DNA of 59,247 nucleotides, taken from positions 1 to 59,247 of the forward strand of contig CAYIPG010000002.1 in assembly GCA_964365305.1 (NCBI GenBank), read 5' to 3'. Below are positions 9,537-53,884 of this stretch, in pieces (the stretch's first letter is position 1; each line of letters begins with the position of its first letter). The translations under genes and the position numbers were made by a program. A model generated the notes under the pieces. That model searched no databases, was not told the DNA's origin, and worked only from the letters and a program-made list of their open reading frames with translations. This DNA is from an uncultured Candidatus Saccharibacteria bacterium (GTDB taxonomy: Bacteria > Patescibacteriota > Minisyncoccia > JACQLN01).

Positions 9537-9645
9537 ACGATGCCAATATACAAATTTATGCGAATGACACGAATAATTATACGAATAAAAATGCATTTGT
9601 GTATCTATTAGTATAATTCGCATGTCATTCGTAGATTAGCATCGC
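9537..9645 (+). repeat. TACGAAT-family junction cassette, copy 4
   Basis: Starts at the pilC stop. Followed by 33 nt of A/T-rich sequence before the pilin ATG. Confidence 0.88.
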
Positions 9646-9678
9646 AATTAATAAATTATAAAAAATAGATATATCCAT

Positions 9679-10143: not shown

Positions 10144-10158
10144 TAAATTATTTTTATC

Positions 10159-10638: not shown

Positions 10639-10645
10639 AGTAGTT

Positions 10646-10720
10646 TTTAGGTGTTAGGGTATTAGGAAATTAGGCGGTTAGTTTTTGATCTAAAATCCTA
10701 ACTCTTAATATCCTAATTCC
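10646..10720. repeat. TTAGG/CCTAA word-repeat hairpin element (pilin 2 to pilin 3)
   Basis: TTAGGTGTTAGGGTATTAGGAAATTAGGCGGTTAG ... CTAAAATCCTAACTCTTAATATCCTAATTCC. Confidence 0.85.
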
Positions 10721-10729
10721 TGTTTCATT

Positions 10730-11170
10730 ATGATTCGTGATTCAAAAGGTTTTACCCTGGTTGAGCTTTTGGTGGTTATCGCTATTATCGGCATTCTAGC
10801 CACGGTGGCTATGGTATCTTTAAATTCAGCTAGAATAAAAGCCCGAGACACCAAAAGAGTAGCCGATATTCGGCAGATTGCTTTGGCTCTGGAATTTTGC
10901 TACAACGAAACCCAAAAATATATTCCCAGCGCTTCTTTTCCCGCCGCCGGCGCGCCCATGACTTGCGGCGGCAATACCTATATTACGACTATGCCGGCTG
11001 ATCCTAGCGGCGGGGATTATCAATATCGTGTTGATAGTGATGCCAATCCACAAAAATATGTTCTAGGAGTTGCCCTAGAAATACTGGCTAATCCTATTTT
11101 GGCTAGCAGTATTCACGGAACTGTTTTGGGACTGGATTGTGATACCCCAGTTTATTGCATTCAACCATAA
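10730..11170 (+). CDS. type IV pilin paralog 3
   Basis: KGFTLVELLVVIAIIGILA. Ends in YCIQP, like its paralogs. Confidence 0.88.
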   Translation: MIRDSKGFTLVELLVVIAIIGILATVAMVSLNSARIKARDTKRVADIRQIALALEFCYNETQKYIPSASFPAAGAPMTCGGNTYITTMPADPSGGDYQYRVDSDANPQKYVLGVALEILANPILASSIHGTVLGLDCDTPVYCIQP

Positions 11171-11175
11171 GCATA

Positions 11176-11202
11176 GGGATTAGGTGTTAGGCCGTTAGGT
11201 GG
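11176..11202. repeat. TTAGG word-repeat half element (after pilin 3)
   Basis: GGGATTAGGTGTTAGGCCGTTAGGTGG with no CCTAA partner arm. Confidence 0.7.
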
Positions 11203-11215
11203 AATATTAGAAAAT

Positions 11216-11240
11216 AGGGGTCTATTATGACCTCTTTTGT
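11216..11240 (+). terminator. intrinsic terminator after the pilin genes
   Basis: AGGGGTC-TATTAT-GACCTCT followed by TTTTGTG. Confidence 0.55.
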
Positions 11241-11259
11241 GTTATAATTTTATATAATT

Positions 11260-12009
11260 ATGACAGGCGCGTTTGCTTTTATTTTGGGTTTGGTCGGGGG
11301 CAGTTTTGTTAATGCCGTGGTGTGGCGTTTGGATAAAAACGAACGGATAGTGTGGGCTAGATCAAAATGCGTTCACTGCCATCATACCTTAGCCGCGGGC
11401 GATCTTGTTCCTTTAATAAGTTTTTTATGGTTGAATGGCCGCTGCCGCTATTGCCGAAAAAATATAAGTTGGCAATATCCAGCGGTGGAATTGGCAGCTG
11501 GTTTGGGCTTTTGGGTTATAACCCAGTCCGGTTTAAGTCCGGAGAATAAAATTTGGCTGGCCGGATTGTTTTTGATAGGACTGGTGATTTTTGTTTATGA
11601 TCTTAAATATACCCTCATTCCTAATGTTTTCATCGCGGTCGGGTTGGTTTGGACGCTGGCCGGAATTTTATTTTTAGAACCCTCGCGGCTCATTTCAGGT
11701 CTTAGCGCGGGTGTGGTTATTTCGGTCTTTTTTCTGATTTTATATCTTGTTTCCAAAGGAGCTTGGATTGGCGGTGGCGATATTAAACTGGGTTTTTTGA
11801 TGGGTTTATGGTTGGGCTGGCCGATGGCTGTGGCGGCTTTGCTTTTTTCGTATATCATTGGAGCTATTATTGGGCTTGCTTTGATTGCTATCCAAAAAGC
11901 CACATTCAAAAGCCAGATACCTTTCGGACCTTTTTTGATTACAGGAGCCGTGGCAGCTTATGTTTTCGGGAGTAGTTTATTGGAATCGTACTTCGGGTTA
12001 TTTTTATGA
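11260..12009 (+). CDS. pilD: prepilin peptidase / N-methyltransferase (A24 family)
   Basis: CVHC...CRYC zinc-finger loop, GGGDIKL aspartyl motif, multiple TM segments. Confidence 0.9.
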   Translation: MTGAFAFILGLVGGSFVNAVVWRLDKNERIVWARSKCVHCHHTLAAGDLVPLISFLWLNGRCRYCRKNISWQYPAVELAAGLGFWVITQSGLSPENKIWLAGLFLIGLVIFVYDLKYTLIPNVFIAVGLVWTLAGILFLEPSRLISGLSAGVVISVFFLILYLVSKGAWIGGGDIKLGFLMGLWLGWPMAVAALLFSYIIGAIIGLALIAIQKATFKSQIPFGPFLITGAVAAYVFGSSLLESYFGLFL

Positions 12010-12045
12010 CTATAATAGTTTTCAATTATCAGTTGCCAGTTTACA
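12010..12045. repeat. TTCAAT/TTACAAT word-repeat junction element
   Basis: TTTTCAATTATCAGTTGCCAGTTTACA followed directly by the ATG, filling pilD stop to next start. Confidence 0.6.
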
Positions 12046-12606
12046 ATGAATTTTCAATTTTCAAACAGGATTAATGATCGTGGCTTCACCCTTATAGAGG
12101 TCATTGTTGTTGTGGCGGTTATGGGTTTTTTGTCGGCTTCCATATTGTCCAGCCAAAAAAGTTCTTCGGCTCGCCGACAGTTGGGTTTGGATGTTCAAAG
12201 AGCGGTTCAGGATTTGCGCAACGCTCAAAACCTGGCGCTGTCTTCGCAGGTTTCGGTTGATTGCAGTGGTAAGGTTGTGCCCTACGGTATTGTTTTTAAC
12301 ACAGCTTTGTCTGATAGATATCTTTTAGTTGCTGATTGCAATCAAAATAATGCTTATGATTCCGGCGACGCCATTGTTCAAACAGTTTTCTTTCCAGAAA
12401 GCAGAATTAATTCTTTGCAGGCGGAAGGTGTCGGTGTGGGTTCTTTGCAGATTTTTTTTACGCCGCCCTTGCCTGCCGTTTTTGTTAATGGCGTGGTTCC
12501 TGTTTCGGTTGTACCCGCCACCAGCGCGACCTTATGTCATTTTAAACAAACGGCATTGTGCAAAACCATAAGTATAAGCTCTAAAGGGGCAATCAGCACG
12601 CAATGA
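12046..12606 (+). CDS. minor pilin (GspH/FimT-like)
   Basis: RGFTLIEVIVVVAVMG prepilin motif. Confidence 0.75.
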   Translation: MNFQFSNRINDRGFTLIEVIVVVAVMGFLSASILSSQKSSSARRQLGLDVQRAVQDLRNAQNLALSSQVSVDCSGKVVPYGIVFNTALSDRYLLVADCNQNNAYDSGDAIVQTVFFPESRINSLQAEGVGVGSLQIFFTPPLPAVFVNGVVPVSVVPATSATLCHFKQTALCKTISISSKGAISTQ

Positions 12607-13169
12607 TAAAAATCTCAAATCTCAAAAAAGCTTCAAGCTTCAAGCTCCACGATCAGGGGTTTACTTTGATAGAAGCCATTGTGGCTATCGGCGTTATTTC
12701 GGTGGGTTTTGTGGGCGCGTTGGTTATTCTTTCTAAAAGCGCTTCGCAGGCCGGTTTTTTGCGCGAAAGAATTATCGCCTCGCATTTGGCGGCCGAAGGA
12801 ATTGAAGTTATCAAAAACATCAGAGACACCAACTGGTTGGTCAACAGAGATTGGAAAGCGGGGCTGGCCGATACCCCTAACGCTATAGTTAGTTATAACA
12901 GCGGGTCGGTAATCATTGAGGCCGATTCGTCTCGTTGGTGCTTGAGTTACGGACTTGATAACGGTTTTTACAAATACAAACACAGTTATCCCTGCAACAC
13001 TATTTTCAAGCGCCATATCGTTTTAACCACAAAAACCATGGAGGCATACCCTTGGGAGACCGATCCCGAAAAATTGAAGTATCTAGAAATTCAAAGCATT
13101 GTGACTTGGCAGGAGAAAGGTCAGATCAAAACAATACAAGTAATAGATAATTTATATAATTGGAAATAA
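12603..13169 (+). CDS. minor pilin (PilV-like)
   Basis: QGFTLIEAIVAIGVIS prepilin motif. 4-nt overlap with the upstream gene. Confidence 0.75.
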   Translation: MIKISNLKKASSFKLHDQGFTLIEAIVAIGVISVGFVGALVILSKSASQAGFLRERIIASHLAAEGIEVIKNIRDTNWLVNRDWKAGLADTPNAIVSYNSGSVIIEADSSRWCLSYGLDNGFYKYKHSYPCNTIFKRHIVLTTKTMEAYPWETDPEKLKYLEIQSIVTWQEKGQIKTIQVIDNLYNWK

Positions 13170-13210
13170 ATACGAAACCAATCCCGAAGGGATGCCTTCG
13201 GCATATACGA
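13170..13210 (+). repeat. miniature TACGAA junction element with a central GC hairpin
   Basis: ATACGAAACCAAT-CCCGAAGG-GATG-CCTTCGGC-ATATACGA, then the ATG (ATACGAATG spans the start codon), between two minor pilin genes. Confidence 0.7.
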
Positions 13211-13723
13211 ATGAAAACGAATAATGTGAATAATTCAAAATTAGGGTTCACGCTCATAGAACTTCTTGTGGCTATGGCGGTTTTTAGCACAGTGGTGGTG
13301 ATGGTCAGCAGTATTTTTGTGAGCGTGATGGGCTCGCAAAGAAAAAATGTGAACAATCAGGAAGTAATAGACAACGCTCGCTTTGTTTTGGAAAGCATTG
13401 GCCGTTCGGTTCGCCAGAGCCAGGTGCAAAGTCCTAATGGCACTTCCTCAAATTTGACTTTGAATCATCCTATTAAAGGTATTTTTACTTATGGTCTAAA
13501 CGGCGGCCAAGTTTTAGAAAGTGGTGTAGCTTTAAGCTCCAGTAATGTTTTTGTGGACCGTTTGGATTTTACCGTAAGCGGTTTCGGCGATGATCAGATT
13601 CAGCCGCGGGTTACAATTGTAATTTCTCTAAGGATCAGTAATCAGCCAGTGGGCGGCGATAGCGCTATGAATTTACAAACCACTATTACGCCCAGTAATT
13701 TAGATATTGTTACGGGATTATAA
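13211..13723 (+). CDS. minor pilin (PilW-like)
   Basis: LGFTLIELLVAMAVFS prepilin motif. ATG 13211 preferred, because the track start 13160 runs through a repeat-derived junction. Confidence 0.72.
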   Translation: MKTNNVNNSKLGFTLIELLVAMAVFSTVVVMVSSIFVSVMGSQRKNVNNQEVIDNARFVLESIGRSVRQSQVQSPNGTSSNLTLNHPIKGIFTYGLNGGQVLESGVALSSSNVFVDRLDFTVSGFGDDQIQPRVTIVISLRISNQPVGGDSAMNLQTTITPSNLDIVTGL

Positions 13724-14116: not shown

Positions 14117-16159
14117 ATGACTAAGCGGGAAGCCCAAGCATATATCATTAAGCTAAAAGCGGAGATTAATCATCACCGCTATCTTTATCATGTGTTGGAT
14201 AAAGAGGAGATTTCTCCAAGCGCTTTAGATGCTCTAAAGCGTGAACTTTTTAAACTGGAGCGGGAGTTTCCTGATTTAATAACTCCTGATTCTCCTAGTC
14301 AGCGGGTTGCGGGAAAGGTCTTGCCGTTTTTTAAAAAAGTTACGCACGCGGCGCCGATGCTTTCGTTGGAGGATGTTTTTAATGAGGTTGAATTTTCCGA
14401 GTGGCTGGCTCGCATATCAAAACTGGTGCCCAATGAGAAACTGTATTTTTTTGGCGAACTAAAAATAGACGGTTTCGCGGTTTCTTTGGTTTATAAAAAA
14501 GGAATTCTAGAAACCGGTTCCACTCGAGGCGATGGCCGAACCGGCGAAGATGTAACCAATAATATAAAGACCATAGAAGCGATACCCTTAAGTTTAGTTG
14601 AAATCAGAAAAGCGGATATTGATAAACTTGGACTTGATTATAACCATGTTAATAAGGCTATAGAATCGGGCGATCTAGAAATAAGAGGCGAGGTGTTTAT
14701 GACCAAGGCCTCTTTTAACAAGATCAATATTGAACAAAAAAGGTTGAACCTTCCTGAATATTCCAATCCTAGAAACACCGCTGCCGGCAGTATCAGGCAG
14801 TTGGATCCTCAACTAGCCGCTCGACGCAATTTGGATTTTTTGGCTTACGATATAGTAACTGATTTAGGCCAAGAGACCCATTCACGGGAGCATGCTTTGT
14901 TAAGACATTTGGGTTTTAAAACCGATAGTGAAGCCGAGCAACTGGGCAGTTCCCAAGCGGTGTCCAGTTTTTGGCAGAGGGCTCAAAAGAAAAGAGAAAA
15001 ATTGCCCTGGGAAATAGACGGTGTTGTTATTTCGGTAAACAATAACCAAATTTTTTCGCGTTTGGGCGTGGTGGGTAAAACGCCGCGAGGTATGGTAGCT
15101 TTTAAGTTTCCAGGTAAAGAAGCCACCACCAAAGTTGCTAATATTATTATCCAGGTCGGCCGGACCGGCGTCTTAACTCCAGTGGCAATTTTGGAGCCGG
15201 TGGATATTAACGGCGTCACAGTAACTCGGGCTACCTTGCATAATGAAGACGAAATTCGGCGTTTAGATATTCGGGTGGGCGATACAGTTATTGTTCAGCG
15301 AGCCGGTGATGTAATTCCTAATGTGGTCGCGGTTTTAAAAAATCTTCGTCCCAAAAATGCCAAACAGTTTCACTTTCCTAAAAGGTGTCCGGTTTGCGGC
15401 GGCGAGATTATTCGCTTCTCGGGCGAGGCGGCGCATAAGTGCGTTAATAAAAATTGCCCGGCCAAGAAGAGAGAAAATCTATATCATTTTGTTTCCAAAC
15501 GAGCTTTTAATATTGTGGGTTTAGGACCGGAAATAATAGATAAATTGGCGGATGCCGGTTTGATTAAAGACGCGGCTGATATATTTAAGTTAAAACCGGA
15601 AAATATAATTGAACTAGAAGGATTTGCCGAGGTCTCCGCAAAAAAGTTAGTTGGCTCAATCCAAAAATCAAAAAAGATAACACTCGCCCGATTTATTTAT
15701 TCTTTAGGCATAATTCAGGTGGGTGAAGAAACCGCCAATTTGCTCGCCCTTTATTTTGGCAACTGGGAAAATTTAGCGCGGGCATCGTCAGAGGAATTAG
15801 AAAAAATTCCGGGCGTTGGCTCGGCCGCTTCAACAAGTATTACGGCCTGGTTTAGCAATAAAAATAATAAGGACTTGGTGAAGCGGTTAACAAACAATAG
15901 TGTTGAAATTGAGTCAGTCAAACGCCTTAGCCAAAAACTAACAGGCCAAACCTTTGTTTTTACCGGCGCTTTGGACACAATTAGCCGCGACGACGCCAAA
16001 GAAAAAGTTCGCCTGATGGGCGGGGATGTTTCCGCTTCTGTTTCCAAAGAAACCGATTATGTGGTAGCCGGCGCCGAACCCGGTTCTAAATTTGATAAAG
16101 CCACCAAACTCGGCGTCAAAATAATTTCCGAAAAAGAGTTCTTAAATTTAATAAAATAA
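14117..16159 (+). CDS. ligA: NAD-dependent DNA ligase
   Basis: Adenylation motif ELKIDG, CPVCGG...C zinc finger, HhH and C-terminal BRCT-like region. ATG 14117 (MTKREAQ...) preferred over track start 14018, which overlaps the previous gene. Confidence 0.95.
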   Translation: MTKREAQAYIIKLKAEINHHRYLYHVLDKEEISPSALDALKRELFKLEREFPDLITPDSPSQRVAGKVLPFFKKVTHAAPMLSLEDVFNEVEFSEWLARISKLVPNEKLYFFGELKIDGFAVSLVYKKGILETGSTRGDGRTGEDVTNNIKTIEAIPLSLVEIRKADIDKLGLDYNHVNKAIESGDLEIRGEVFMTKASFNKINIEQKRLNLPEYSNPRNTAAGSIRQLDPQLAARRNLDFLAYDIVTDLGQETHSREHALLRHLGFKTDSEAEQLGSSQAVSSFWQRAQKKREKLPWEIDGVVISVNNNQIFSRLGVVGKTPRGMVAFKFPGKEATTKVANIIIQVGRTGVLTPVAILEPVDINGVTVTRATLHNEDEIRRLDIRVGDTVIVQRAGDVIPNVVAVLKNLRPKNAKQFHFPKRCPVCGGEIIRFSGEAAHKCVNKNCPAKKRENLYHFVSKRAFNIVGLGPEIIDKLADAGLIKDAADIFKLKPENIIELEGFAEVSAKKLVGSIQKSKKITLARFIYSLGIIQVGEETANLLALYFGNWENLARASSEELEKIPGVGSAASTSITAWFSNKNNKDLVKRLTNNSVEIESVKRLSQKLTGQTFVFTGALDTISRDDAKEKVRLMGGDVSASVSKETDYVVAGAEPGSKFDKATKLGVKIISEKEFLNLIK

Positions 16160-16188
16160 AATTATCAAACACCGAGTGTTTGATAATT
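16160..16188. repeat. 29-bp perfect palindrome AATTATCAAACAC-CGA-GTGTTTGATAATT
   Basis: Lies exactly between the ligA stop and the stop of the Y1 gene. Confidence 0.9.
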
Positions 16189-16864
16189 AAAGTTCATCAT
16201 CTATATCTATTCTGTATTTTTCTTCTAAACTTTCCTTAGCGCTACTTTTTTTGATAAAATCGTGATACTTGTAATTTTCGCTAAATTGACCAGTTATAAT
16301 ACCAGGAACCAGTAGTTGTCCCCACCTATTTGTCTCTAAATAATCTTGATAACTTGACCACTCATAATTATGTTCTCTGTTTTTCCAATGTTTTAATCCC
16401 CTTGGGTTTTTGTGTATATAAGCAGAAAGATGAAGAAGTTGGAGGTTGTCATTAATATGTACAGCTTTAAAAGGACCTTGAAATAGATGGCCTATTTTGC
16501 GGTATTTGGTATTAAAGTATTTTGTATATGCATTCTGCACTCGTTGCATATAGTCGGATATACCGTTGTCTTTTATCTCTTTCACAATGATATGAAAATG
16601 GTTTGGCATTAGTGTAAAACCAATTAGATTAACCATCTTGTCTTTCATAAATTTATCGATCCCCTTAATTTTATTAAACACTCGGTGTTTAATAAAATGG
16701 GTTACATTGTAGCCAATATTGTTAAAAGATTGTTCGGATTGCAGATGTAAAATAAGAAAAAGGAATCTAACATAATCTCTTTCGTTTGTGAAAATATTTT
16801 GTTTATTATTACCTCTGTTGAATATATGGAAATGTTCTCCGGGAGCAAATTTAGTTTTCCTCAT
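16187..16864 (-). CDS. IS200/RAYT-like HUH-Y1 transposase-family protein
   Basis: HUH motif LMPNHFHIIV and C-terminal YIHKNP tyrosine motif. Flanked by matching palindromes. Confidence 0.8.
   Translation of the reverse strand: MRKTKFAPGEHFHIFNRGNNKQNIFTNERDYVRFLFLILHLQSEQSFNNIGYNVTHFIKHRVFNKIKGIDKFMKDKMVNLIGFTLMPNHFHIIVKEIKDNGISDYMQRVQNAYTKYFNTKYRKIGHLFQGPFKAVHINDNLQLLHLSAYIHKNPRGLKHWKNREHNYEWSSYQDYLETNRWGQLLVPGIITGQFSENYKYHDFIKKSSAKESLEEKYRIDIDDEL
16669..16697. repeat. 29-bp perfect palindrome TTTTATTAAACAC-TCG-GTGTTTAATAAAA inside the Y1 CDS
   Basis: Encodes FIKHRVFNK. Same AAACAC/GTGTTT core as the flanking palindrome. Confidence 0.9.
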
Positions 16865-16925
16865 AGTTATATTTTAATCTATCGAACACTCGGTGTCTAA
16901 TAAAAATTTGATAGAAGGGACGCTT

Positions 16926-17722: not shown

Positions 17723-19168
17723 ATGAACCAATTTTCAAATTTGACCATAACTAAAGCGCGGGAGTTGTTGGATAATAAAGAAATTTCGGCGGTGGAATTA
17801 ACTCAATATTATTTAAATCAGATCAAATCCAAAAACAAAGATCTGAACGCTTTTTTGAGTGTGTCCGAATCGGCGCTGGATCAAGCTAAAAAATCAGACG
17901 AAGAAATCAAAAATGGCTCGGCTGGTTCTTTGGTTGGAATACCTTTGGCTATCAAAGATAATATTCTGGTCAAAGACGAAATTTGCACCGCCGGTTCCAA
18001 AATTTTAGAAAAATATAAAGCCGCGTATGATGCCACGGTTATTACCCGGCTAAAAAGAGCCGGCGCGGTGATTTTGGGAAAAACAAATTTAGACGAATAC
18101 GCTATGGGTTCGTCCACGGAAAACTCCGCTTTCGGTCCCACTAAAAATCCATACGATACTTCTCGCGTCCCCGGCGGTTCCTCGGGCGGATCGGCGGCCG
18201 CCGTGGCGGCCGAGATGTGTTTGGGCGCTTTGGGCACCGATACCGGCGGATCTATTCGCCAGCCCGCCAGTTTTTGCGGCGTGGTGGGATTAAAGCCAAC
18301 CTACGGCGCGGTTTCTCGTTTTGGCGCGGTGGCTTTGGGATCTTCACTAGATCAAATCGGCCCTCTGGCTAAAACAATTGAAGATGCCAGTTTAATTTTT
18401 GATGTTATTTCCGGCCACGACCCGTTGGATTCCACAACCGTGCCTAACAATACCCGAACCGCCGAACGAATTGCCGAAATAAACATTGGTGATTTAAGAA
18501 TCGGTTGGCCTAAAGAATATTTTGAGGCCGAGGGCATAGATCCAAAAGTCAAAGAAACTGTTCAAAAAGCCATAGCGTGGTATGAAGCGCAAGGTGCTAA
18601 AATTAAAGAAATCAGTTTGCCGCATACCCAATATGCTCTGGCGGCCTATTATATTATTCAACCAGCCGAATGCTCGGCCAATCTGGCCCGCTACGATGGT
18701 GTTCGTTATGGCGAGAGATCGGGTGATGGAGACCTAATGTCGGTTTATACCCAGAGCCGCGGCGAATTTTTAGGTGAGGAAACCCAGCGCCGCGTCATGA
18801 TTGGAACTTATGTTTTGTCTTCGGGTTATTACGACGCTTATTATTCCAAGGCGCAAAAAGTGAGAAGTTTAATTAAACAAGATTTTATAAACGCCTTTGA
18901 GGAAGTGGATGTGATTATGACGCCAACCTCCCCGGTCACGGCTTTCAAAATAGGCGAGCGGGTTAGCAATCCTTTAGCCATGTACGCCGCCGATATTTTT
19001 ACGGTTACCGCTAACCTTGCCGGTATTTGCGGCTTGTCCATCAACTGCGGCCAAGTAGACGGCTTGCCGGTGGGCTTGCAAATTTTAGGGCCGTGGTTTG
19101 AGGAGAATTTATTATTTAAAGTTGGTGAATTTTTTACACGATGCCAATATACAAATTTATGCGAATGA
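17723..19168 (+). CDS. gatA: Asp/Glu-tRNA amidotransferase subunit A
   Basis: Amidase signature GGSSGGSAAAVAA. The last 10 codons and the stop are encoded by the junction cassette. Confidence 0.93.
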   Translation: MNQFSNLTITKARELLDNKEISAVELTQYYLNQIKSKNKDLNAFLSVSESALDQAKKSDEEIKNGSAGSLVGIPLAIKDNILVKDEICTAGSKILEKYKAAYDATVITRLKRAGAVILGKTNLDEYAMGSSTENSAFGPTKNPYDTSRVPGGSSGGSAAAVAAEMCLGALGTDTGGSIRQPASFCGVVGLKPTYGAVSRFGAVALGSSLDQIGPLAKTIEDASLIFDVISGHDPLDSTTVPNNTRTAERIAEINIGDLRIGWPKEYFEAEGIDPKVKETVQKAIAWYEAQGAKIKEISLPHTQYALAAYYIIQPAECSANLARYDGVRYGERSGDGDLMSVYTQSRGEFLGEETQRRVMIGTYVLSSGYYDAYYSKAQKVRSLIKQDFINAFEEVDVIMTPTSPVTAFKIGERVSNPLAMYAADIFTVTANLAGICGLSINCGQVDGLPVGLQILGPWFEENLLFKVGEFFTRCQYTNLCE

Positions 19169-19233
19169 TACGAATAAAAATTCGAATGTCTTATTTGTAT
19201 AATTCGTATGTATTCGTAGATTAGCATCACATT
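19136..19233 (+). repeat. TACGAAT-family junction cassette, copy 5 (overlaps the gatA 3' end)
   Basis: ACACGATGCCAATATACAAAT...GTATAATTCGTATGTATTCGTAGATTAGCATCAC. The gatA stop 19166-19168 lies inside it. Confidence 0.9.
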
Positions 19234-29980: not shown

Positions 29981-30048
29981 TTTTCTCGCTTTAATCCAAT
30001 TTTAACCCAAGCCCTGTCACATGCTATACTTTTAAAATATTATACTTT

Positions 30049-30076
30049 GCATGAGATAACGATCGTTATCTCATGC
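30049..30076. repeat. 28-bp perfect palindrome GCATGAGATAACGATCGTTATCTCATGC upstream of wHTH-Cas2-like gene A
   Basis: Follows a TATACT -10-like box. The 26-bp core is identical to 30695-30720. Confidence 0.92.
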
Positions 30077-30129
30077 AATATTTAGTCCAATATCAAATTA
30101 TATATCAAGCTATATATCAACAAACTATT

Positions 30130-30699
30130 ATGAAATCCGGTGGGAAATTACAAAGATTGGGTCCAAATCAGCAAAAGGTTTTATTGCTTTTATTTGGCGG
30201 GGTGGGATTAATGTTATCCCAATCCATTAAGACACAATTTAGAGTTATTAAAGAGGTCTCTAAAGAATGGAAAAATATAAATAATTTGAGTTTGAGAAGA
30301 GCGATTACTACTTTATATAAATCCAAACTTATTTTAGAAAAAGAAAATCCAGACGGGACGACCACTATGTTTTTAACTGAAAAGGGTAAAGAGAAGGCCA
30401 TCACTTTTAATATAGAAACAATAAAAATTATGTCGCCAAAGAGATGGGATAAAAAATGGCGGTTAGTTGTCTTTGATATACCGGAAAAGAAAAGAAAGGC
30501 TCGCGATGCTTTGAGAGAGGTATTAAAGAAGATGGAGTTTTATGAATATCAAAAAAGCATTTTTATTCACCCTTACCATTGTAGAGATGAGTTAGATTAT
30601 ATCATTGAATTTTTTAGGATGAGACCTTATGTTAGGTTAATTGTGTCGGAGGAATTAGATAATGAATTACATCTTAGAAAGATTTTCAACCTATCATGA
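30130..30699 (+). CDS. winged-helix (PaaX-N-like) plus Cas2/VapD-like domain protein
   Basis: WDKKWRLVVFDIPEKKRKARDALREVLKKMEFYEYQKSIFIHPY matches the Cas2-like beta1-alpha1 pattern with conserved Asp. The track N-terminus from 30073 is low-complexity repeat DNA. Confidence 0.75.
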   Translation: MKSGGKLQRLGPNQQKVLLLLFGGVGLMLSQSIKTQFRVIKEVSKEWKNINNLSLRRAITTLYKSKLILEKENPDGTTTMFLTEKGKEKAITFNIETIKIMSPKRWDKKWRLVVFDIPEKKRKARDALREVLKKMEFYEYQKSIFIHPYHCRDELDYIIEFFRMRPYVRLIVSEELDNELHLRKIFNLS

Positions 30700-30724
30700 G
30701 ATAACGATCGTTATCTCATGATAG
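30691..30724. repeat. 34-bp perfect palindrome CTATCATGAGATAACGATCGTTATCTCATGATAG overlapping the stop codon of gene A
   Basis: Stop TGA 30697-30699 lies in the left arm. 26-bp core identical to the upstream copy. Confidence 0.92.
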
Positions 30725-30782
30725 ATATGGTAGGTTAGATCTATTGTTAAATATTTTTTAGCAGATTAGAATTGCTTTATAT

Positions 30783-32534
30783 ATGAATTCTCAAGAAATA
30801 CGGCAACGGTTTCTCAAGTTTTTTCAAGAAAGAGGGCATAAAATCGTGCCGTCGTCGTCTTTGATTCCCGCCGATCCTTCGGTGCTGTTAACCACGGCCG
30901 GGATGCAGCAGTTTAAACAATACTACACCCAGCCGGAATTGGCCGATCGGGATTTTGGTTCGCGCAACACCGTTTCTATCCAAAAGTCATTTCGCACTTC
31001 GGATATAGATGAAGTTGGCGATGAGACCCATTTAACATTTTTTGAAATGATGGGTAATTTTTCTTTTGGCGGATATTTTAAGAAAGAAGCGATAGAGTAC
31101 GCCCATGAATTTATTACTAAAGAAATGGGTTTGGAGATTGACTATGTGAGTATCTTCGCGGGCGACCCCTCGACTGCGCTCGGGGCAGGTCCTGAAGTGC
31201 CAATTGATTCCGAGTCAGAACAGATCTGGCAGTCGTTAGGTATTAAAGATATTAAAAAGTTTGGCCGGGAGGATAATTTTTGGGGGCCGACCGGCGCCGA
31301 AGGCCCGTGTGGTCCGACCACGGAAATTTATGTGAACGGCGTGGAGGTTTGGAATATAGTATTCAACGAATACTATATGAAGTCGGACAAATCTCTCGAG
31401 TCGTTGCCTATCAAGGGCGTGGATACCGGCATGGGTTTGGAGCGGTTAGCTGTGGCAGTTCAGAAAAAAAATAATATTAATAATATTTTTGAAACGGATT
31501 TGTTTGATCTTATCAATCTGATTCCGAAAAATGTTCCCGAAAAGCAAAAAAGAATCATTGCCGATCATCTGCGCGGATCGGTTTTTTTGCTGGCTGACGG
31601 TGTCAGGCCGTCTAACAAGGAAGTCGGTTATGTTTTGCGTCGGTTAGTGAGGCGAGTATTTGTTTATGAAAATATCAATAAGTTGGATAACAATCTAATC
31701 GGCCGGATTGTTTCGGAGATTATAAAAAAGTATGGAGAATTTTATTCGGAAGTAAATAATGCGGATATTTTGGATGTAATAAAAGTAGAGAAAGACAAAT
31801 ATCAAAAGGCGACCGAAGTTGGTATTGATGCGCTGAACAATATTACTTATAGCAGTTCCGAAGAATTAGGGAAGAAATTGTTTAATATTTATCAAAAGTT
31901 TGGTTTTAGTATAGAATTGGCCTTGGAAATTTTAAGGGAAAAATGGGTTGAAAGGGGGGAAGAATGGGAAGCAGATGTTAAAAAATCCTTCGAAATAAAT
32001 TTCGAGAAACACCAAGAAATTTCGCGCTCGGGGGCGGAAAAGAAATTCGGCGGGCATGGCCTGGTTGAGGGTGATTTAACCGCGGCCGACGAGGCAGAAA
32101 TGAAAATTAAAACTCGCCTGCACACTGTCACACATCTATTAAACGCCGCCCTTCATCGGGTCTTGGGTGATGAGGTCTCACAAAGAGGTTCCGATATCAC
32201 AGCTGAACGGACCCGGTTTGATTTTGTTTTTGGGCGTAAATTAACCAATGAAGAAATAAAAAAGGTGGAGGATTTAGTCAATAATGCTATTGCTCAAGAT
32301 TATCCAATCATGATTCAAGAAATGCCGCTTGAAGAGGCCAAAAAATTGGGAGCGCTGTTTTTTTACAAAGGCAATTATCCGAATATGGTCAAAGTTTATT
32401 CAATCAGTGATTTTTCAAAGGAGCTATGTGGCGGGCCGCATGTTAATCGCACGGGCGAGATTGGTAAATTTCGTATCACAAAGGAAGAATCATCTAGCGC
32501 AGGAGTCAGGAGGATCCGAGCTATTATAGAATAA
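30783..32534 (+). CDS. alaS: alanine--tRNA ligase, short form (no C-Ala domain)
   Basis: SSLIPADPSVLLTTAGMQQFK. Editing-domain HxxxH (HTVTHLLNAALH) and CGGPHV. Only 583 aa. Confidence 0.9.
   Translation: MNSQEIRQRFLKFFQERGHKIVPSSSLIPADPSVLLTTAGMQQFKQYYTQPELADRDFGSRNTVSIQKSFRTSDIDEVGDETHLTFFEMMGNFSFGGYFKKEAIEYAHEFITKEMGLEIDYVSIFAGDPSTALGAGPEVPIDSESEQIWQSLGIKDIKKFGREDNFWGPTGAEGPCGPTTEIYVNGVEVWNIVFNEYYMKSDKSLESLPIKGVDTGMGLERLAVAVQKKNNINNIFETDLFDLINLIPKNVPEKQKRIIADHLRGSVFLLADGVRPSNKEVGYVLRRLVRRVFVYENINKLDNNLIGRIVSEIIKKYGEFYSEVNNADILDVIKVEKDKYQKATEVGIDALNNITYSSSEELGKKLFNIYQKFGFSIELALEILREKWVERGEEWEADVKKSFEINFEKHQEISRSGAEKKFGGHGLVEGDLTAADEAEMKIKTRLHTVTHLLNAALHRVLGDEVSQRGSDITAERTRFDFVFGRKLTNEEIKKVEDLVNNAIAQDYPIMIQEMPLEEAKKLGALFFYKGNYPNMVKVYSISDFSKELCGGPHVNRTGEIGKFRITKEESSSAGVRRIRAIIE
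31158..31189 (+). repeat. 32-nt GC-rich hairpin element, in frame within alaS
   Basis: GCGGGCGACCCCTCGACTGCGCTCGGGGCAGG. 27/32 identical to 33527-33558. Encodes AGDPSTALGAG. Confidence 0.85.
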
Positions 32535-32581: not shown

Positions 32582-34357
32582 ATGGCTAGAGAGAATATCT
32601 ATATTGACCTGAACGAAGATGTTCAGTCGGTCATAAGCAAAATTCAAGAAAGCGAATCGGAACAGGTGGATTTAATTATGCCCACCGGCGCTCGCGTGCT
32701 TCAGAATATTGTGGATACTCACTTGATTCGCGAAGCCGGGGCGAACGCCAATAAAGTTCTGACAGTGGTTACGAGCGACCTTATGGGCAAAATTTTTGCC
32801 CAGCGGGCCGGGCTTAGCGTGGCCAGCGAGAACGGCGCGAATGAAGAAAGTATTTTTGGAGCCGCAATTGTTGCGGGTGGTCGAATGAGCGATATTGTGC
32901 CACGGAAGAACACCCTTGCCTTAGCTTCAAAATCAACTGTAAAAAGCGGACTGTTCGCTCCGGTTAAGCCGTTGTCGTTCTCAAAAGTTAAATCAGCCGC
33001 CTTAAAATCAGTTGGTTCAAAAAAGAATATGCCTGCGGGCGAAGTTGCTAAAAACAAAGGTGAAATCGGAGCGGGATTTTTAAAATCATACCGAGAAGAA
33101 AGATCCAAAAATAGCGTTTTTGATGACTTAAGTAAAATCAACCGGAGAAAATCTTTTCTGCCGTTTAAAATAAGCGCTGCTGTCGTGGTGGCGGGTATTG
33201 TGGTTTTAACGGCGCTCGCGGGCGTAGTTGTTTTTTCTAAAGCGCTGCCTAAGGCCGAAATAATTATTTATCCGGCCAGAGAAAGCGTGGATGATAGCGT
33301 GGATGTTTTTATTTCCAGCCGTGATTCCCAAGCGGATTTAGCCAAAGGCATAATACCAGGGGAGTTGCTTACTTTGGAAAAAAGCGAAAATGGGGAATTT
33401 AGCGCCACCGGGCAAAAAGAGGTTTCGCAAAAAGCCAAAGGCAAGATAATTATCTATAATAGTTTTTCTTCACAGCCGCAAACATTCGTGGTTTCCAGAT
33501 TTCAAGCCGAAGGTGCCAATAGCGCCGCGGGCGGCCCCTCCACTGGAGTCGGGGCAGGCAAAATTTTTTGGACCACTAAAGGATTAACCGTTCCGGGCGC
33601 GATTATTAAAGATGGCAAGACCACGCCGGGCCAGATTACAACCGAAGTTATCGCGGCATCGCCGGGCGAGGCCTATAATATCGGCCCTTCCAAATTTATC
33701 ATGCCGGCTTTAAAAAATACGCCCAAGGCCGATAAAATATACGCCATGTCTGATTTGCCTATGGCGGGCGGACAGACAGGACAATCCACAGTGGTTTCCA
33801 ATGATGATGTTAATAAGGCCTATGATTCGCTTAAGGAAAAAATAAAGCCCCAGTTTCAAGGTCTAAAACAAAATTTGCCGGTTGGTTTTCAACTCTGGCC
33901 CGAGGCCTACAACGAAGAATTAGCCGAAAGTTCTAGCGCGCCCGAAGCGGGCGAGGCCGCCGATAAATTTAACGCCAACATAAAAATGGTGGCGCGGGCA
34001 ATTGTGTTTAGATCGCAGGATTTGGATAATTATATTAACCAGCAAATATCGGCTGGCCTGAAAGAAGGCAAAACCTTGCTAATGTCTTCCAAAGAAATTT
34101 CGTTTATAAAATCGCCGGTGGTGGATTACCAAAAAAACGCCATTACGGCTTCGCTGGCGGTACGTTATGATGTTATAGACAATTTTGACGCCGAAGATTT
34201 TAAGAAATCAATTCTCAAGAAAAAAATTTCGGATGTCAATAAAATAAAGTCCGGCTATAAAAATATTGAACGGGTAGAGGTTAAATTTTGGCCCTTTTGG
34301 GTGCGCCGCGTGCCGGCCAATTCCGATCGTGTGACTATAAAAATAGTGGGGATGTAA
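32582..34357 (+). CDS. large hypothetical membrane-anchored protein
   Basis: 591-aa ORF with one central TM segment. No recognised catalytic motif. Confidence 0.65.
   Translation: MARENIYIDLNEDVQSVISKIQESESEQVDLIMPTGARVLQNIVDTHLIREAGANANKVLTVVTSDLMGKIFAQRAGLSVASENGANEESIFGAAIVAGGRMSDIVPRKNTLALASKSTVKSGLFAPVKPLSFSKVKSAALKSVGSKKNMPAGEVAKNKGEIGAGFLKSYREERSKNSVFDDLSKINRRKSFLPFKISAAVVVAGIVVLTALAGVVVFSKALPKAEIIIYPARESVDDSVDVFISSRDSQADLAKGIIPGELLTLEKSENGEFSATGQKEVSQKAKGKIIIYNSFSSQPQTFVVSRFQAEGANSAAGGPSTGVGAGKIFWTTKGLTVPGAIIKDGKTTPGQITTEVIAASPGEAYNIGPSKFIMPALKNTPKADKIYAMSDLPMAGGQTGQSTVVSNDDVNKAYDSLKEKIKPQFQGLKQNLPVGFQLWPEAYNEELAESSSAPEAGEAADKFNANIKMVARAIVFRSQDLDNYINQQISAGLKEGKTLLMSSKEISFIKSPVVDYQKNAITASLAVRYDVIDNFDAEDFKKSILKKKISDVNKIKSGYKNIERVEVKFWPFWVRRVPANSDRVTIKIVGM
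33527..33558 (+). repeat. 32-nt GC-rich hairpin element, in frame within ORF 32582-34357
   Basis: GCGGGCGGCCCCTCCACTGGAGTCGGGGCAGG. Encodes AGGPSTGVGAG in the same element frame. Confidence 0.85.
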
Positions 34358-34389: not shown

Positions 34390-34424
34390 GCCCCGACGCA
34401 AGGTCGGGGCAGCTTTACTTTTTT
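34390..34424 (+). terminator. intrinsic terminator (GC hairpin related to the in-frame GC element)
   Basis: GCCCCGAC-GCAAG-GTCGGGGC followed by AGCTTTACTTTTTT. Confidence 0.65.
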
Positions 34425-36404: not shown

Positions 36405-36518
36405 ATGAAGGTACGACCATCAGTAAAGAAAATTTGTAACAAGTGCAAAATAGTCCGCCGGAATGGGACGGTTTATGTTATTTGTGAAACCCCCAAGCAT
36501 AAACAGCGACAAGGTTAA
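36405..36518 (+). CDS. rpmJ: 50S ribosomal protein L36 (below the ORF-track cutoff)
   Basis: My translation: [37 protein letters not shown]. Confidence 0.9.
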
Positions 36519-36596
36519 CTTTACGAAATACGAATGGTACGAATTTACGAATTCAATCCATTAGTATATTTGTAAAAATTCGTATTTAGTAAAGAT
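36519..36596 (+). repeat. TACGAAT-family variant junction element (rpmJ to rpsM)
   Basis: TTTACGAAATACGAATGGTACGAAT...AATTCGTA...GTAAAGAT-ATG. Shares its ends with 37430-37514. Confidence 0.85.
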
Positions 36597-36983
36597 ATGC
36601 GTATAGCCGGTATTAATATTCCAGACAATAAAAGAGTTGAGGTCGCGCTCACCTATATTTTTGGCGTGGGGCCGACTGCGTCTAAAAAGATATTAGGCGG
36701 CACTAAAATTAATCCCGATAAAAGAGCTAAAGATATCACACCCGAAGAAGCCAATAAAATTAAGGAATACATGGAAAAGAACTTTAAGATAGAAGGTGAA
36801 TTAAAGCGAGAAATTATCCAAAATATCAAGCGCAAAAAAGACATATCAAGTTATCAAGGCACGCGGCACATGCGGGGCTTGCCGGTGCGGGGCCAGCAAA
36901 CCAAAACGAATAATAGAACTAGAAGGGGTAATGCCAGAAAGACCATGGGTTCGGGCCGAAAACCAGCCGGCCAAAAAACATAA
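36597..36983 (+). CDS. rpsM: 30S ribosomal protein S13
   Basis: MRIAGINIPDNKRVEVALTYIFGVG. Confidence 0.95.
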   Translation: MRIAGINIPDNKRVEVALTYIFGVGPTASKKILGGTKINPDKRAKDITPEEANKIKEYMEKNFKIEGELKREIIQNIKRKKDISSYQGTRHMRGLPVRGQQTKTNNRTRRGNARKTMGSGRKPAGQKT

Positions 36984-36988: not shown

Positions 36989-37429
36989 ATGGGAAAAAAG
37001 AGAATCGTATCAGAATCAGTAGTTCAGGAAAAAGCCGACAGCAATAAAAAAGCGGCGGCTGTTTCGGTTCGCCCGTCCAATAAAGTTGAAAGCGGCCGGG
37101 TTTATGTTCAGGCCAGTTACAATAATACTTTGGTGAGTTTAACCGACGAACGGGGCAATCTGATCGCGCAGGCCTCGGCGGGCGCTTTGGGTTTTAAGGG
37201 TCCCAAAAAAGCCACGCCTTACGCCGCCAACAGGATTATTGAATCGTTAGGCGAAAAAATTAAAAAAATTGGTTTAAGAGATGTGGTTGTTTATGTTAAA
37301 GGCATAGGTTCGGGTCGAGAATCAGCCGTTAGAGGTTTGGTGGGGCAAGGTCTTAATATAATCGCTATAAAAGATATTACCCCGACGCCGCATAACGGGC
37401 CCAAGCCGCCTAAACCCCGCCGGGTTTAA
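36989..37429 (+). CDS. rpsK: 30S ribosomal protein S11
   Basis: S11 core (YVQASYNNTLVSLTDERGN...GSGRESAVR) with an N-terminal extension. Confidence 0.93.
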   Translation: MGKKRIVSESVVQEKADSNKKAAAVSVRPSNKVESGRVYVQASYNNTLVSLTDERGNLIAQASAGALGFKGPKKATPYAANRIIESLGEKIKKIGLRDVVVYVKGIGSGRESAVRGLVGQGLNIIAIKDITPTPHNGPKPPKPRRV

Positions 37430-37514
37430 TTTTACGAAATACGAATGGTACGAATATACTAATAAATTCAAAACCCAATTCGTAAATTTGTAAAGATTAA
37501 TAATTCGTAAAGAT
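37430..37514 (+). repeat. TACGAAT-family variant junction element (rpsK to rpsD)
   Basis: TTTTACGAAATACGAATGGTACGAAT...AATTCGTAAAGAT-ATG. Confidence 0.85.
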
Positions 37515-38120
37515 ATGTATAAATTCACTTGTAAAAAATGCAGGCGTTTGGGTTATAAAGTTTGTGATTCAATTAAGTGCGCTATGGTCAAAAAACCCTA
37601 TCCGCCCGGCCAGCACGGCAAAAACAGTTCCAGTCGGCGTTCGGAATTTGGAACACAACTAGCCGAAAAACAAAAATTAAAAGCCATTTATGGTTTGCGA
37701 GAACGGCAATTCCGGCGCTATTTTGATTTTGCTTCCGAGAAAAAAGGCGTAACTGCGCAAATAATGATGGAACTTTTAGAACGGCGGTTAGATAATGTTG
37801 TTTTTCGTTTGGGTCTAGCCCCAACTCGGCACGCTGCTAGGCAGCTGGTGGCCCATGGGCACTTTGCCGTTAACAGCCGTAGAACTTATTCGCCGTCTTA
37901 TTCGGTTAAACCCGGCGACAATATAGCCATAAAGGACTCCAGCCAGCCCAAAAAGATTTTTGAAAATATTAGAACGATCTTAAAAAAATTTGAACCGCCC
38001 AGTTGGCTGGAACTGGATAAAGAAAAATTGGTCAGCAAAATGGCGCGGTTGCCCGACAAAGATTTTTTGAAGGAATTGCCGGTAGAGCTTTCCAAAGTGT
38101 TGGAATACTATTCAAGATAA
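37515..38120 (+). CDS. rpsD: 30S ribosomal protein S4
   Basis: N-terminal Cys cluster CKKCRRLG...C...C, S4 domain RLDNVVFRLGLA. Confidence 0.93.
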   Translation: MYKFTCKKCRRLGYKVCDSIKCAMVKKPYPPGQHGKNSSSRRSEFGTQLAEKQKLKAIYGLRERQFRRYFDFASEKKGVTAQIMMELLERRLDNVVFRLGLAPTRHAARQLVAHGHFAVNSRRTYSPSYSVKPGDNIAIKDSSQPKKIFENIRTILKKFEPPSWLELDKEKLVSKMARLPDKDFLKELPVELSKVLEYYSR

Positions 38121-38985: not shown

Positions 38986-39336
38986 ATGAAGCATCAAAAT
39001 AAAAAAGGTAGAAGATTTGGGCGGGTAAAAAAAGTACGCCAGGCCTTATTCAAGAGTTTAATAGTGGCTTTAATTACGCATGGTAAAATAAAAACCACCG
39101 AGGCCAAAGGCAAGGAACTGGTTAAAAAAATTTCACCCTTAATTACCAAGGCCAAAAAAGGCGGACTAGCCAACACGCGGCTTTTGGCTAAGATTTTACC
39201 GCCAATGGCGCTGGGTAAAATAATTAAAGAAATTGGACCGAAATATCAGGATCGTTCGGGTGGTTATACGCGAGTAATCAAGATAAATCGCCGGCTTAGG
39301 GATGGAGCCAAGATGTGCTATGTTGAACTGGTTTGA
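38986..39336 (+). CDS. rplQ: 50S ribosomal protein L17
   Basis: RRFGRVKKVRQALFKSL...TTEAKGKEL pattern. Follows rpoA. Confidence 0.9.
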   Translation: MKHQNKKGRRFGRVKKVRQALFKSLIVALITHGKIKTTEAKGKELVKKISPLITKAKKGGLANTRLLAKILPPMALGKIIKEIGPKYQDRSGGYTRVIKINRRLRDGAKMCYVELV

Positions 39337-39381
39337 TGCGATGCCAATATACGAATTCATGCGAATGATGCGAATAGAAAT
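39337..39381 (+). repeat. TACGAAT-family junction cassette, 5' half only
   Basis: TGCGATGCCAATATACGAATTCATGCGAATGATGCGAAT between the rplQ stop and the rplM ATG. Confidence 0.8.
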
Positions 39382-39762
39382 ATGAATCAGAAAAATACAA
39401 ATATATATAAATTTGACGCTTCCAAGGAGATTTTAGGACGATTAGCTACAAAAGTAGCTATAATTTTGCGTGGTAAGGATTCAGCTAAATTTTCACCCAA
39501 TAATCCGGATTTATCGATAGAAGTTACGGTCTATAATACCGATAATATTAAAGTTACCGGAAATAAAATGGAGGACAAAATTTATTACCATCATTCGGGT
39601 TATCCAGGCGGAATTAAATCTAGGTCGCTTAAGGATTATATGGCGCGGGATTCGCGCGAGGTTTTTAGAAAAGCGGTGTATGGCATGCTGCCGAAAAATA
39701 AACTTAGAGACAAATGGATTAGATGTCTAATTTTAGTCAAAGGTAATTTAGCCGAAAAATAG
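39382..39762 (+). CDS. rplM: 50S ribosomal protein L13
   Basis: ILGRLATKVAIILRGK..., HHSGYPGG. Confidence 0.9.
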   Translation: MNQKNTNIYKFDASKEILGRLATKVAIILRGKDSAKFSPNNPDLSIEVTVYNTDNIKVTGNKMEDKIYYHHSGYPGGIKSRSLKDYMARDSREVFRKAVYGMLPKNKLRDKWIRCLILVKGNLAEK

Positions 39763-53100: not shown

Positions 53101-53102
53101 TC

Positions 53103-53125
53103 ATATCGGTTTGCGAAACCGATAT
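53103..53125. repeat. 23-bp palindrome ATATCGGTTT-GCG-AAACCGATAT
   Basis: 13 nt upstream of ATG 53138. Confidence 0.9.
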
Positions 53126-53137
53126 ATAATACGAATT

Positions 53138-53857: not shown

Positions 53858-53863
53858 TTTAAT

Positions 53864-53884
53864 TATCGGTTTCGCAAACCGATA
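53864..53884. repeat. 21-bp palindrome TATCGGTTT-CGC-AAACCGATA
   Basis: 6 nt after stop 53857. Its last base is the A of the next ATG. Confidence 0.9.

Follow-up and report, generated by a model that had tools for sequence, protein, structure and literature searches.

Rickettsia palindromic elements (RPEs; Ogata et al. 2000) are repeats of about 100–150 bp that are restricted to Rickettsia, and the cores of two of them, RPE-4 and RPE-6, have been placed among the CGTC-tagged repetitive extragenic palindromic sequences, or REPs (PMC3733652, PMC1779305). The defining marks of REPs themselves are an unpaired tag, GTAG or CGTC (TGTC/CCTC), at one terminus and a CCA-like tail at the opposite one (PMC3733652), and the papers on REPs and REP-associated tyrosine transposases (RAYTs) that were used here for comparison (PMC3733652, PMC3116915, PMC8266576) include the case of a REP inside recB that occupies the same site in related Xanthomonas species. 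Here we describe a much shorter repeat found in a 59,247-nt stretch of DNA (contig CAYIPG010000002.1, positions 1 to 59,247; the whole stretch is hereafter called the window) from a groundwater Parcubacteria bacterium of the candidate phyla radiation (CPR). Two of its essential-looking genes, alaS and the open reading frame directly downstream (ORF2), each hold an in-frame copy, and we consider it probable that both segments are copies of a miniature, non-coding, REP-like selfish unit of 23–24 nt (hereafter the unit) which is translated as a harmless loop.

Functionally the window copies act like RPEs: both are selfish hairpin repeats found in frame in unrelated, often housekeeping genes, apparently translated, tolerated at the protein surface and variable between relatives, and one sense frame is common to both window copies and to 22 of the 36 copies found within open reading frames (ORFs) of relatives, the alaS copy standing at a fold-compatible site. 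The unit differs from RPEs in its length, in having a conserved loop closed by a stem of 3–4 bp instead of long palindromic arms, in the absence of a CGTC tag and in its occurrence in at least four phyla (Cyanobacteriota by BLAST match only) instead of one genus. Structurally the closest described repeats are the REPs, which are likewise short interspersed stem-loops occurring as singletons, inverted doublets and clusters and sometimes lying in genes at the same site in relatives, though the features that define REPs and MITEs (miniature inverted-repeat transposable elements) fail. The unit starts with CCC[T/C]TCGAC and ends with CA[G/A]G(C), with neither a GTAG/CGTC tag nor a CCA tail; it has a 4-bp stem with a loop of 11–12 nt, whereas REPs fold stably with at least 8–9 bp and a loop of 4–5 nt; in Parcubacteria it is mostly intragenic and seldom paired in inverted orientation, whereas REPs are extragenic, lie downstream of genes and form inverted dimers; and its sequence is common to several phyla, unlike the lineage-specific REPs. 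Unlike MITEs it has neither terminal inverted repeats nor target-site duplications, an inverted-repeat layout being seen only in rare doublets.

Two other kinds of short sequence invite comparison. The uptake sequences of Pasteurellaceae and Neisseriaceae (USS and DUS) are 9–12 nt long and species-specific, number thousands per genome and arise by point mutation combined with uptake bias; the unit resembles them as a short motif in genes with preferred frames and tolerant positions, and differs in being inserted and deleted as whole blocks of 23–24 nt, at about 30 per Mb, and in being common to several phyla. In yeast mitochondria, mobile GC clusters and 'byp' elements are short, GC-rich, organellar hairpins that colonise AT-rich coding sequence, much as the unit does, but byps lie out of frame and are bypassed by the ribosome, whereas the copies of the unit in conserved genes are in frame.

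The window is part of a longer contig of 89 kb, Hain_H43_01um_R1_92 (ERZ1292629), sampled from groundwater at Hainich well H43, of which 75 kb were read, namely the window and 16 kb beyond it. The original prediction, made from the sequence of the window alone, was that one 32-nt GC-rich palindromic hairpin element had been inserted in frame into alaS and into an unrelated gene. The two 32-mers (31158–31189 and 33527–33558, both on the plus strand) do lie at these positions and are 27/32 identical, with a similarity that stops abruptly at either end, and they are read in a common element frame, as DPSTALGAG in alaS and GPSTGVGAG in ORF2. A degenerate pattern allowing up to three mismatches finds these two sites only in the 59-kb window, against 0 expected from shuffles; the 16 kb read beyond it held no further units, giving a total of two in 75 kb. 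The length of 32 nt has to be revised, because orthologous empty sites fix the boundaries of the repeat: with boundaries marked by slashes, the empty alaS site of the fetched locus L128 reads GGT GA/T TCA GAA and the filled site of the window GGC GA/CCCCTCGACTGCGCTCGGGGCAGG/T CCT GAA, while in ORF2 the empty site of L001 reads GGC GG/C AAG and the filled site of the window GGC GG/CCCCTCCACTGGAGTCGGGGCAGG/C AAA. The unit is therefore 24 nt long, and the leading 8 nt of the 32-mer, GCGGGCG(A/G), are host codons for a conserved Gly-Asp (alaS) or Gly-Gly (ORF2). The ORF2 copy is diverged, with four mismatches to the family consensus, and is preceded by 18 additional nucleotides (Table 1) that are missing from every ortholog examined in the ORF2 codon alignment and that gave no match when compared with the repeat family. 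The alaS region is AT-rich (37% GC), as had been noted, but a GC-rich island of this size is nothing special, as 67 24-nt windows in the stretch reach at least 79% GC.

The evidence for gain and loss comes from orthologous sites. AlaRS, the alanine-tRNA ligase encoded by alaS, was compared across about 200 Parcubacteria sequences (120 proteins and 80 species-representative loci). At site 1, which has the strand ...YVSVF on one side and the helix ...ESEQIW on the other, the common state is a short G-D-S-E-V-P-A-D, and the site is empty in most sequences; within 0–3 codons of this position it is filled by PSTSSGQ, PSTGSGQ or PSTALGAG units in the window and L001, in L125, L135, L157, L171 and L193, and in further proteins. 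In a neighbour-joining tree the filled lineages are scattered, each with empty sisters, a distribution that calls for six or more gains, unless precise losses were very numerous. Units also occupy a second alaS site, a loop that follows NQYYxxxD, in L157, L176 and L167. In L001, an 85%-identical relative, the canonical unit CCCTCGACTT/CGCTCGGGGCAAGT is split in its loop by a second, nested unit of 24 nt; in L167 both alaS sites hold, in frame, one and the same 73-nt doublet, made up of a unit, a spacer and an inverted unit; and decayed alaS copies are found in L139, L149 and L168. Orthologs without the nucleotide element are also without the peptide, the opposite of the outcome that the original prediction had named as speaking against it.

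In the window protein the unit peptide occupies residues 128–135. Solved AlaRS structures have a 12-residue gap at this position, and an AlphaFold2 model built from a 120-sequence alignment (mean pLDDT 86.6) falls to 62 at residues 131–140 and shows residues 126–142 as coil between a strand (121–125) and a helix (143–151). The model is consistent with a unit peptide lying in a surface loop, and the ortholog alignment, the solved structures and the model all agree with the earlier proposal that the insertion is in a variable stretch of AlaRS. A different element of about 70 nt, formed by the perfect inverted repeat CCCTCACCCTTGAAAGAG...CTCTTTCAAGGGTGAGGG, occupies alaS site 1 in frame in L189 (about 10380–10450), which makes this AlaRS loop a general hot spot for the insertion of small palindromic elements.

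The ORF2 site is filled only within the clade of the window (the window, L125 and L127, with a decayed copy in L128) and is empty in L001 (87.7% DNA identity in ORF2), L126, L138 and 50 distant orthologs. The filled copies carry common unusual bases, which suggests a single gain followed by precise losses. Units with empty orthologs were also found in further genes, including mnmA and a dnaG-like gene.

The repeat is by no means confined to this genome. A search with the consensus (up to four mismatches) in 1.44 Mb of Parcubacteria DNA (46% GC) gave 42 units, about one per 35 kb, compared with 0–1 in shuffled sequences. A scan of IMG/VR contigs with a loose pattern gave at least 120 matches, near-all of those listed belonging to one motif, CCC[T/C]TCGAC-(AAG/AGG/TTCG/TGCG/TCCG/TACG)-CTC[A/G]GGGCA[G/A]GC, with unrelated flanks, sharp ends and some copies in tandem; a narrow pattern built on the window copies gave zero matches in IMG/VR and matched at least 120 contigs in metagenomes of the Joint Genome Institute (JGI). 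Among the 123 JGI matches listed, 95 were the exact alaS 24-mer, on contigs of 36–77% GC and with dozens of unrelated flanks. A logo of the flanks confirms that the ends are sharp, with a weak preference for 5' GA. The unit is present in complete isolate replicons of Sphingomonas and Trichlorobacter and is therefore no assembly artefact; by BLAST matches alone it extends to Sphingobium, Novosphingobium, Variovorax, Polaromonas, Comamonas, Methylotuvimicrobium and Pseudanabaena. The phyla represented are Patescibacteria, Pseudomonadota and Thermodesulfobacteriota, with Cyanobacteriota added by BLAST match only, and the unit is essentially missing from cultured phages. No credible match was found in Rfam 15 for the window region, for unit-rich loci or for the flanks of the nuclease genes described below, and a literature search on the encoded peptides, the DNA strings of the unit and in-frame palindromic insertions in CPR bacteria found no account of it. 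Candidate origins as a tRNA 3'-half, a CRISPR repeat, a Tn3 inverted repeat or an integron attC site were compared by eye only, and none fitted convincingly.

Thirty-six of the 42 Parcubacteria units lie within ORFs of at least 100 aa, where 22 are in the sense frame that encodes PST, eight in the other sense frames and six antisense (binomial 2.6e-9), so that the search for further copies and the tabulation of their frames that had been proposed with the original prediction yielded both additional copies and a favoured frame. The 24-nt form is in frame unaided, while the 23-nt form always comes with extra changes giving a net gain of 18, 21 or 27 nt; all net length changes, those with the 23-nt form included, are multiples of three, which argues for units that are read through. 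We infer that the bias stems from the benign, flexible Pro/Ser/Thr/Gly peptide, and selection on what is encoded accounts for the single frame more simply than a preference at the insertion step would.

The unit consists of a covarying stem of 3–4 bp (at times longer), CCC[T/C]...[A/G]GGG, which closes a conserved loop of 11–12 nt, TCGAC-N3-4-CTC, and is followed by the tail CA[G/A]G(C); it is no true palindrome. The claim that both copies fold is sustained in part. Single units folded no better than shuffled sequence (z +0.1 to -1.2), making this a thermodynamically marginal hairpin, and for this reason covariation is used as the evidence for the hairpin. In the IMG/VR sample, where two degenerate stem positions were free to vary, the combinations were T/A in 76 cases, C/G in 15 and mismatched in three (Fisher 2e-14). 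In other fetched loci the stems differ around the constant loop (TCC/GGA, GGC/GCC, TGG/CCA, TTT/AAA, up to CCGTTCGTCC/GGACGAACGG); for 36 units with such other stems 66% of cells were paired, compared with 50% after shuffling (0/500) and 26–43% with the partner slid, and the covariation score was 0.433 versus 0.208. Peptide conservation was rejected as a general cause of the T/A–C/G covariation, the sites being synonymous only in the 23-nt form and in the PST frame.

As had originally been proposed, then, the sequence is small, repeated, hairpin-forming, gained and lost and read in frame in unrelated genes. The proposal was essentially right but too local, the element not being confined to this genome or phylum; a true palindrome did not hold, and a preference for in-frame insertion is the less simple account of the frame pattern. 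In the mechanism that we propose, new copies would come as DNA insertions, placed in alaS between GA and T of ...GGN GA/T TCA GAA... and in ORF2 between GG and C of ...GGC GG/C AAG.... Purifying selection would spare only those in-gene copies that are in frame, in sense orientation and in a surface loop and that encode the benign Pro-Ser-Thr-x-x-Gly-x-x, and such a survival filter would produce both the single-frame pattern and the recurrent hot spots. Surviving copies would be transcribed and translated as an 8-residue loop extension bringing no benefit to the host, and would later decay, be deleted or receive further nested or adjacent insertions. Insertion would be catalysed in trans by a nuclease recognising the stem-loop on single-stranded DNA, for which the leading candidate would be a GIY-YIG protein of about 95 aa, known here from other phyla only, whose gene is bracketed by inverted units in a manner comparable with RAYTs and REPs.

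The candidate was recognised on a Sphingomonas replicon, where units stand on both sides of a GIY-YIG gene for 106 aa, arranged as forward unit, inverted unit, gene, forward unit. Six more bracketed GIY-YIG loci with different neighbour genes were found (L327, from a Syntrophobacter metagenome-assembled genome, L328, L329/L330, L331, L332 and L333), for a total of seven, all in other phyla. L327 has perfect 38-nt inverted repeats, one unit is flipped in orientation between L329 and L330, and of 21 units detected, 12 are no more than 200 nt away from a GIY-YIG gene, a region that makes up 13% of the sequence (P 2.5e-6). ORF tails running into a unit or doublet were seen for 42 of the 120 GIY-YIG homologs listed. 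This layout is like that of a REPtron, with a single-copy nuclease gene bracketed by inverted repeats (PMC3733652), and differs from it in that the bracketed gene encodes a GIY-YIG protein in place of the HUH tyrosine transposase. The unit-bracketed genes form one subfamily, 58–89% identical. No GIY-YIG genes were found beside units in about 3 Mb of sampled loci by signature and hidden Markov model search, the unit-bracketed family has no relatives in IMG/VR, and no literature was found that links GIY-YIG proteins (or COG2827/YhbQ) with REP/RAYT/REPIN-like repeats.

Because a single subfamily is involved, because none of its kind was found in the 75 kb of host genome and because the three GIY-YIG genes found in Parcubacteria loci are free of adjacent units, the assignment is treated as a lead and not as a result; a stand-alone GIY-YIG nuclease is the best lead for the mobilising enzyme, but a tentative one. 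A more far-reaching version, which we hold to be possible yet doubtful, is that the unit belongs to a previously undescribed pan-bacterial analogue of the REP/RAYT system, in which a GIY-YIG nuclease of about 95 aa recognises the TCGAC-N3-4-CTC loop and spreads the unit, and that in streamlined CPR bacteria the repeat survives mainly inside genes, adding a Pro-Ser-Thr loop of 8 residues to essential enzymes, AlaRS among them; conservation of the nuclease would account for an identical 24-mer in genomes of 36% to 77% GC.

Some arrangements at GIY-YIG loci are of separate interest. In L332 (about 2290–2420) and L333 (about 2380–2480) a second palindromic element, GGAGGGGGTTGTACATCC...GGATGTACAACCCCCTCC, splits the loop of the unit adjacent to the GIY-YIG gene, and 5 bp, CGAAG, are apparently duplicated. 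On either side of a GIY-YIG gene in Parcubacteria (L126, 1538–1830) stands an inverted repeat of 15 bp, perfect (ACCCAGCACCTTTTT / AAAAAGGTGCTGGGT) and unrelated to the unit.

A link to RAYTs was also considered and rejected, as the Y1_Tnp genes of the window, L174 and L321 have no adjacent units. Of the two in the window (Table 1), the first is located between mreC and a DUF6932 gene and is flanked (53102–53886) by 28-nt inverted repeats which are themselves hairpins (ATCGGTTTGCGAAACCGAT), unrelated to the unit and without more copies in the 75 kb. The second is flanked (16156–16905) by three copies of another unrelated hairpin (AAACACCGAGTGTTT; TTATCAAACACCGAGTGTTTGATAA).

A number of observations weigh against a mobile selfish unit and have to be set beside the above. 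Neither a transposition event nor an enzyme activity has been seen, and the 75 kb of host genome contains just the two units and no GIY-YIG gene. The three GIY-YIG genes found in loci of Parcubacteria, which are more distant, stand without units beside them. About 80% of units are singletons, unlike classical REP and REPIN (paired REP) populations, and an inverted partner less than 150 nt away accompanies only about 7%. Besides the marginal folding of single units, no target-site duplication was found at pairs of filled and empty sites, and three independent 23-nt insertions each show a net gain of 18 nt with about 5 nt replaced, which hints at a replacement-type mechanism in place of simple insertion. 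Terminal inverted repeats were not visible, and the flanks were free of conserved or inverted sequence. Independent vertical evolution of a selfish repeat would hardly be expected to leave identical 24-mers in different phyla, and in the ORF2 unit the third-codon positions are more conserved than in the rest of the gene (15/19 identical against 43% expected, P 0.0016), which may reflect constraint, conversion or repeated insertion.

This last observation is among those that favour a function at the nucleotide level, with the unit acting as a DNA or mRNA binding or processing site for a conserved factor, or as an mRNA structure affecting translation or decay, and the peptide being a by-product. 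The loop of the unit is exactly conserved across phyla and GC contents, its stem covaries, the synonymous sites of the ORF2 unit are conserved to excess in lineages whose third-codon identity is otherwise about 43%, and sense orientation prevails within long ORFs, with 30 units out of 36; the tail GGGCAGG resembles FtsK-orienting GGGNAGGG motifs. We nevertheless consider such a function unlikely, given that most orthologs of the same genes do without the unit, that copies decay (ORF2 in L128, alaS in L139, L149 and L168) and are spread over many genes without relation to each other, over intergenic DNA and over tandem arrays, that no Rfam family matches and that other copies, by conversion, or a recent date of insertion could also produce the synonymous conservation. 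The missing target-site duplications and terminal inverted repeats and the replacement of about 5 nt in the three 23-nt insertions would equally suit an enzyme-free spread, in which short-patch illegitimate recombination or templated repair copies an abundant GC-rich sequence into break or fork sites, hot spots being places of microhomology. The donors would be other genomic copies or environmental DNA imported by these cells, which have type IV pilus and competence-like genes, and the insertion of new units inside or beside old ones, the finding of one identical sequence in genomes that are unrelated but come from like habitats and the presence of pilus genes in the window and its contig fit this account. 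The sharp ends and unrelated flanks, however, would require donors without flanking homology, the covarying stem around a constant loop points to recognition of a structure, and a nuclease gene bracketed by units in seven loci would be unexpected; we regard this route as improbable.

Two further accounts have very little in their favour. The peptides are of low complexity and lie in variable loops, as they would if no mobility were involved and they were ancient variable-loop residues or the outcome of convergent low-complexity Gly/Ala/Pro/Ser coding, but an exact 24-nt match at 95 or more mostly unrelated loci is impossible by convergence, close relatives differ by precise presence or absence and the same DNA is found elsewhere in three reading frames and on both strands, by which this account is refuted. 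Removal or bypass of the units at the level of RNA or translation, as tiny introns or in the manner of the mitochondrial 'byp' hop, is suggested by short GC-rich hairpins in AT-rich genes, for which yeast mitochondria offer a general parallel; it is most improbable, since no unit in a conserved gene is out of frame or contains a stop and the compensating changes of the 23-nt form restore a multiple of three, both of which would be needless if the unit were skipped. A selfish, REP-like unit thus remains the reading that we prefer.

If it is correct, one short sequence is a common and unannotated part of environmental bacterial genomes, which would account for a large class of spurious or odd predicted peptides (PSTSSGQA, PFDKLRAG, LRLRSGQA, PELVEG and similar), and the smallest and most streamlined genomes, those of CPR bacteria, tolerate selfish DNA in the surface loops of essential proteins. 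The units would then serve as natural markers of permissive insertion sites, e.g., in AlaRS. From the GIY-YIG link follows a concrete proposal, open to test, that REP-like repeats can arise by a second, non-HUH route, and the identity of the unit across phyla poses the question of whether conserved recognition, horizontal spread or function lies behind it.

The features discussed are collected in Table 1. The closest relatives of the window AlaRS are from Parcubacteria/Patescibacteria metagenome-assembled genomes, and ORF2 follows alaS in related genomes too.

Table 1. Coordinates of the units, their host genes and other features (positions in the window, or in the named locus for the GIY-YIG genes).
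Feature	Position	Strand	Description
alaS	30783-32534	+	583 aa, short Parcubacteria-type alanine-tRNA ligase; Pfam tRNA-synt_2c 2e-93, tRNA_SAD
24-nt unit CCCCTCGACTGCGCTCGGGGCAGG	31166-31189	+	inside alaS; in-frame reading (D)PSTALGAG
parts of the alaS unit	stem 31166-31169 pairing with 31182-31185; loop 31170-31181; tail 31186-31189	+	tail CAGG
ORF2	32582-34357	+	591 aa, conserved Parcubacteria protein; one hydrophobic segment, no Pfam family
additional 18 nt GGTGCCAATAGCGCCGCG	33512-33529	+	codes for GANSAA; just 5' of the ORF2 unit
24-nt unit CCCCTCCACTGGAGTCGGGGCAGG	33535-33558	+	inside ORF2; in-frame reading (G)PSTGVGAG
intrinsic-terminator hairpin GCCCCGAC GCAAG GTCGGGGC	34390-34412	+	followed by T-run TTTACTTTTTT; 33 nt past the ORF2 stop
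Y1_Tnp/RAYT-like gene	53138-53857	+	239 aa, HYH motif; best NCBIfam match REP-associated tyrosine transposase (REP_Tyr_transpos), below cut-off
second, diverged Y1_Tnp-like ORF	16190-16873	-	phmmer 5e-26 to the first; 36.6% GC stretch
unit-bracketed GIY-YIG gene	L205 2590-3040		about 95 aa, IKGWSRAKK subfamily
unit-bracketed GIY-YIG gene	L327 2900-3380		same subfamily
unit-bracketed GIY-YIG gene	L328 680-1060		same subfamily
unit-bracketed GIY-YIG gene	L329 2950-3500		same subfamily
unit-bracketed GIY-YIG gene	L331 2340-2840		same subfamily

The hairpin downstream of ORF2 had been described as related to the unit. As a terminator it is real and strong, with an 8-bp stem (-11.4 kcal/mol, z -4.1) and the features of an intrinsic terminator, but kinship to the unit is without evidence and its membership of the repeat family was rejected: the two have only the 9-mer TCGGGGCAG in common, and the terminator is orthologous in L001 (about 10440–10462), where the same stem stands in the same place with a reverse-complemented loop (GCAAG versus CTTGC), i.e., as a flipped palindrome. 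By a composition estimate the probability of one extra exact 9-mer in 59 kb is roughly 0.2, and on account of this the hairpin is treated as an ordinary terminator. At the same position L125 has a different hairpin.

Other repeats were noted in the window. Just upstream of alaS, two copies of a perfect 26-nt palindrome, CATGAGATAACGATCGTTATCTCATG, at 30026–30086 and 30679–30744 bracket a PaaX_M/Cas2-like gene (30073–30699) and look like operator sites. Six tandem paralogous type IV pilin-like genes with GFTLIELLVV N-termini lie at 9682–13285, the first three with a common 181-nt repeat, and the pilus genes on the contig comprise pilM/O, two T2SSE ATPases, T2SSF and a prepilin peptidase. An AT-rich intergenic repeat of 60–120 nt is present in seven copies (3255–3375, 4820–4941, 8212–8324, 9519–9654, 19120–19232, 39320–39382 and 59175–59237) with the pattern ACACGATGCCAATATACGAATTTATGCGAATGATACTAAT...TATAATTCGCATGTCATTCGT.GATTAGCATCGC and TACGAAT-type sub-repeats inside; a promoter or other regulatory role is possible for these, as is a further mobile element. 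Finally, an upstream region of about 100 nt occurs twice, 911 nt apart, at 36497–36599 and 37408–37517 (GC.TAAAC...TTTACGAAATACGAATGGTACGAAT.TAC.AAT ... ATTCGTA.ATTTGTAAA), and the two are probably duplicated promoter regions.

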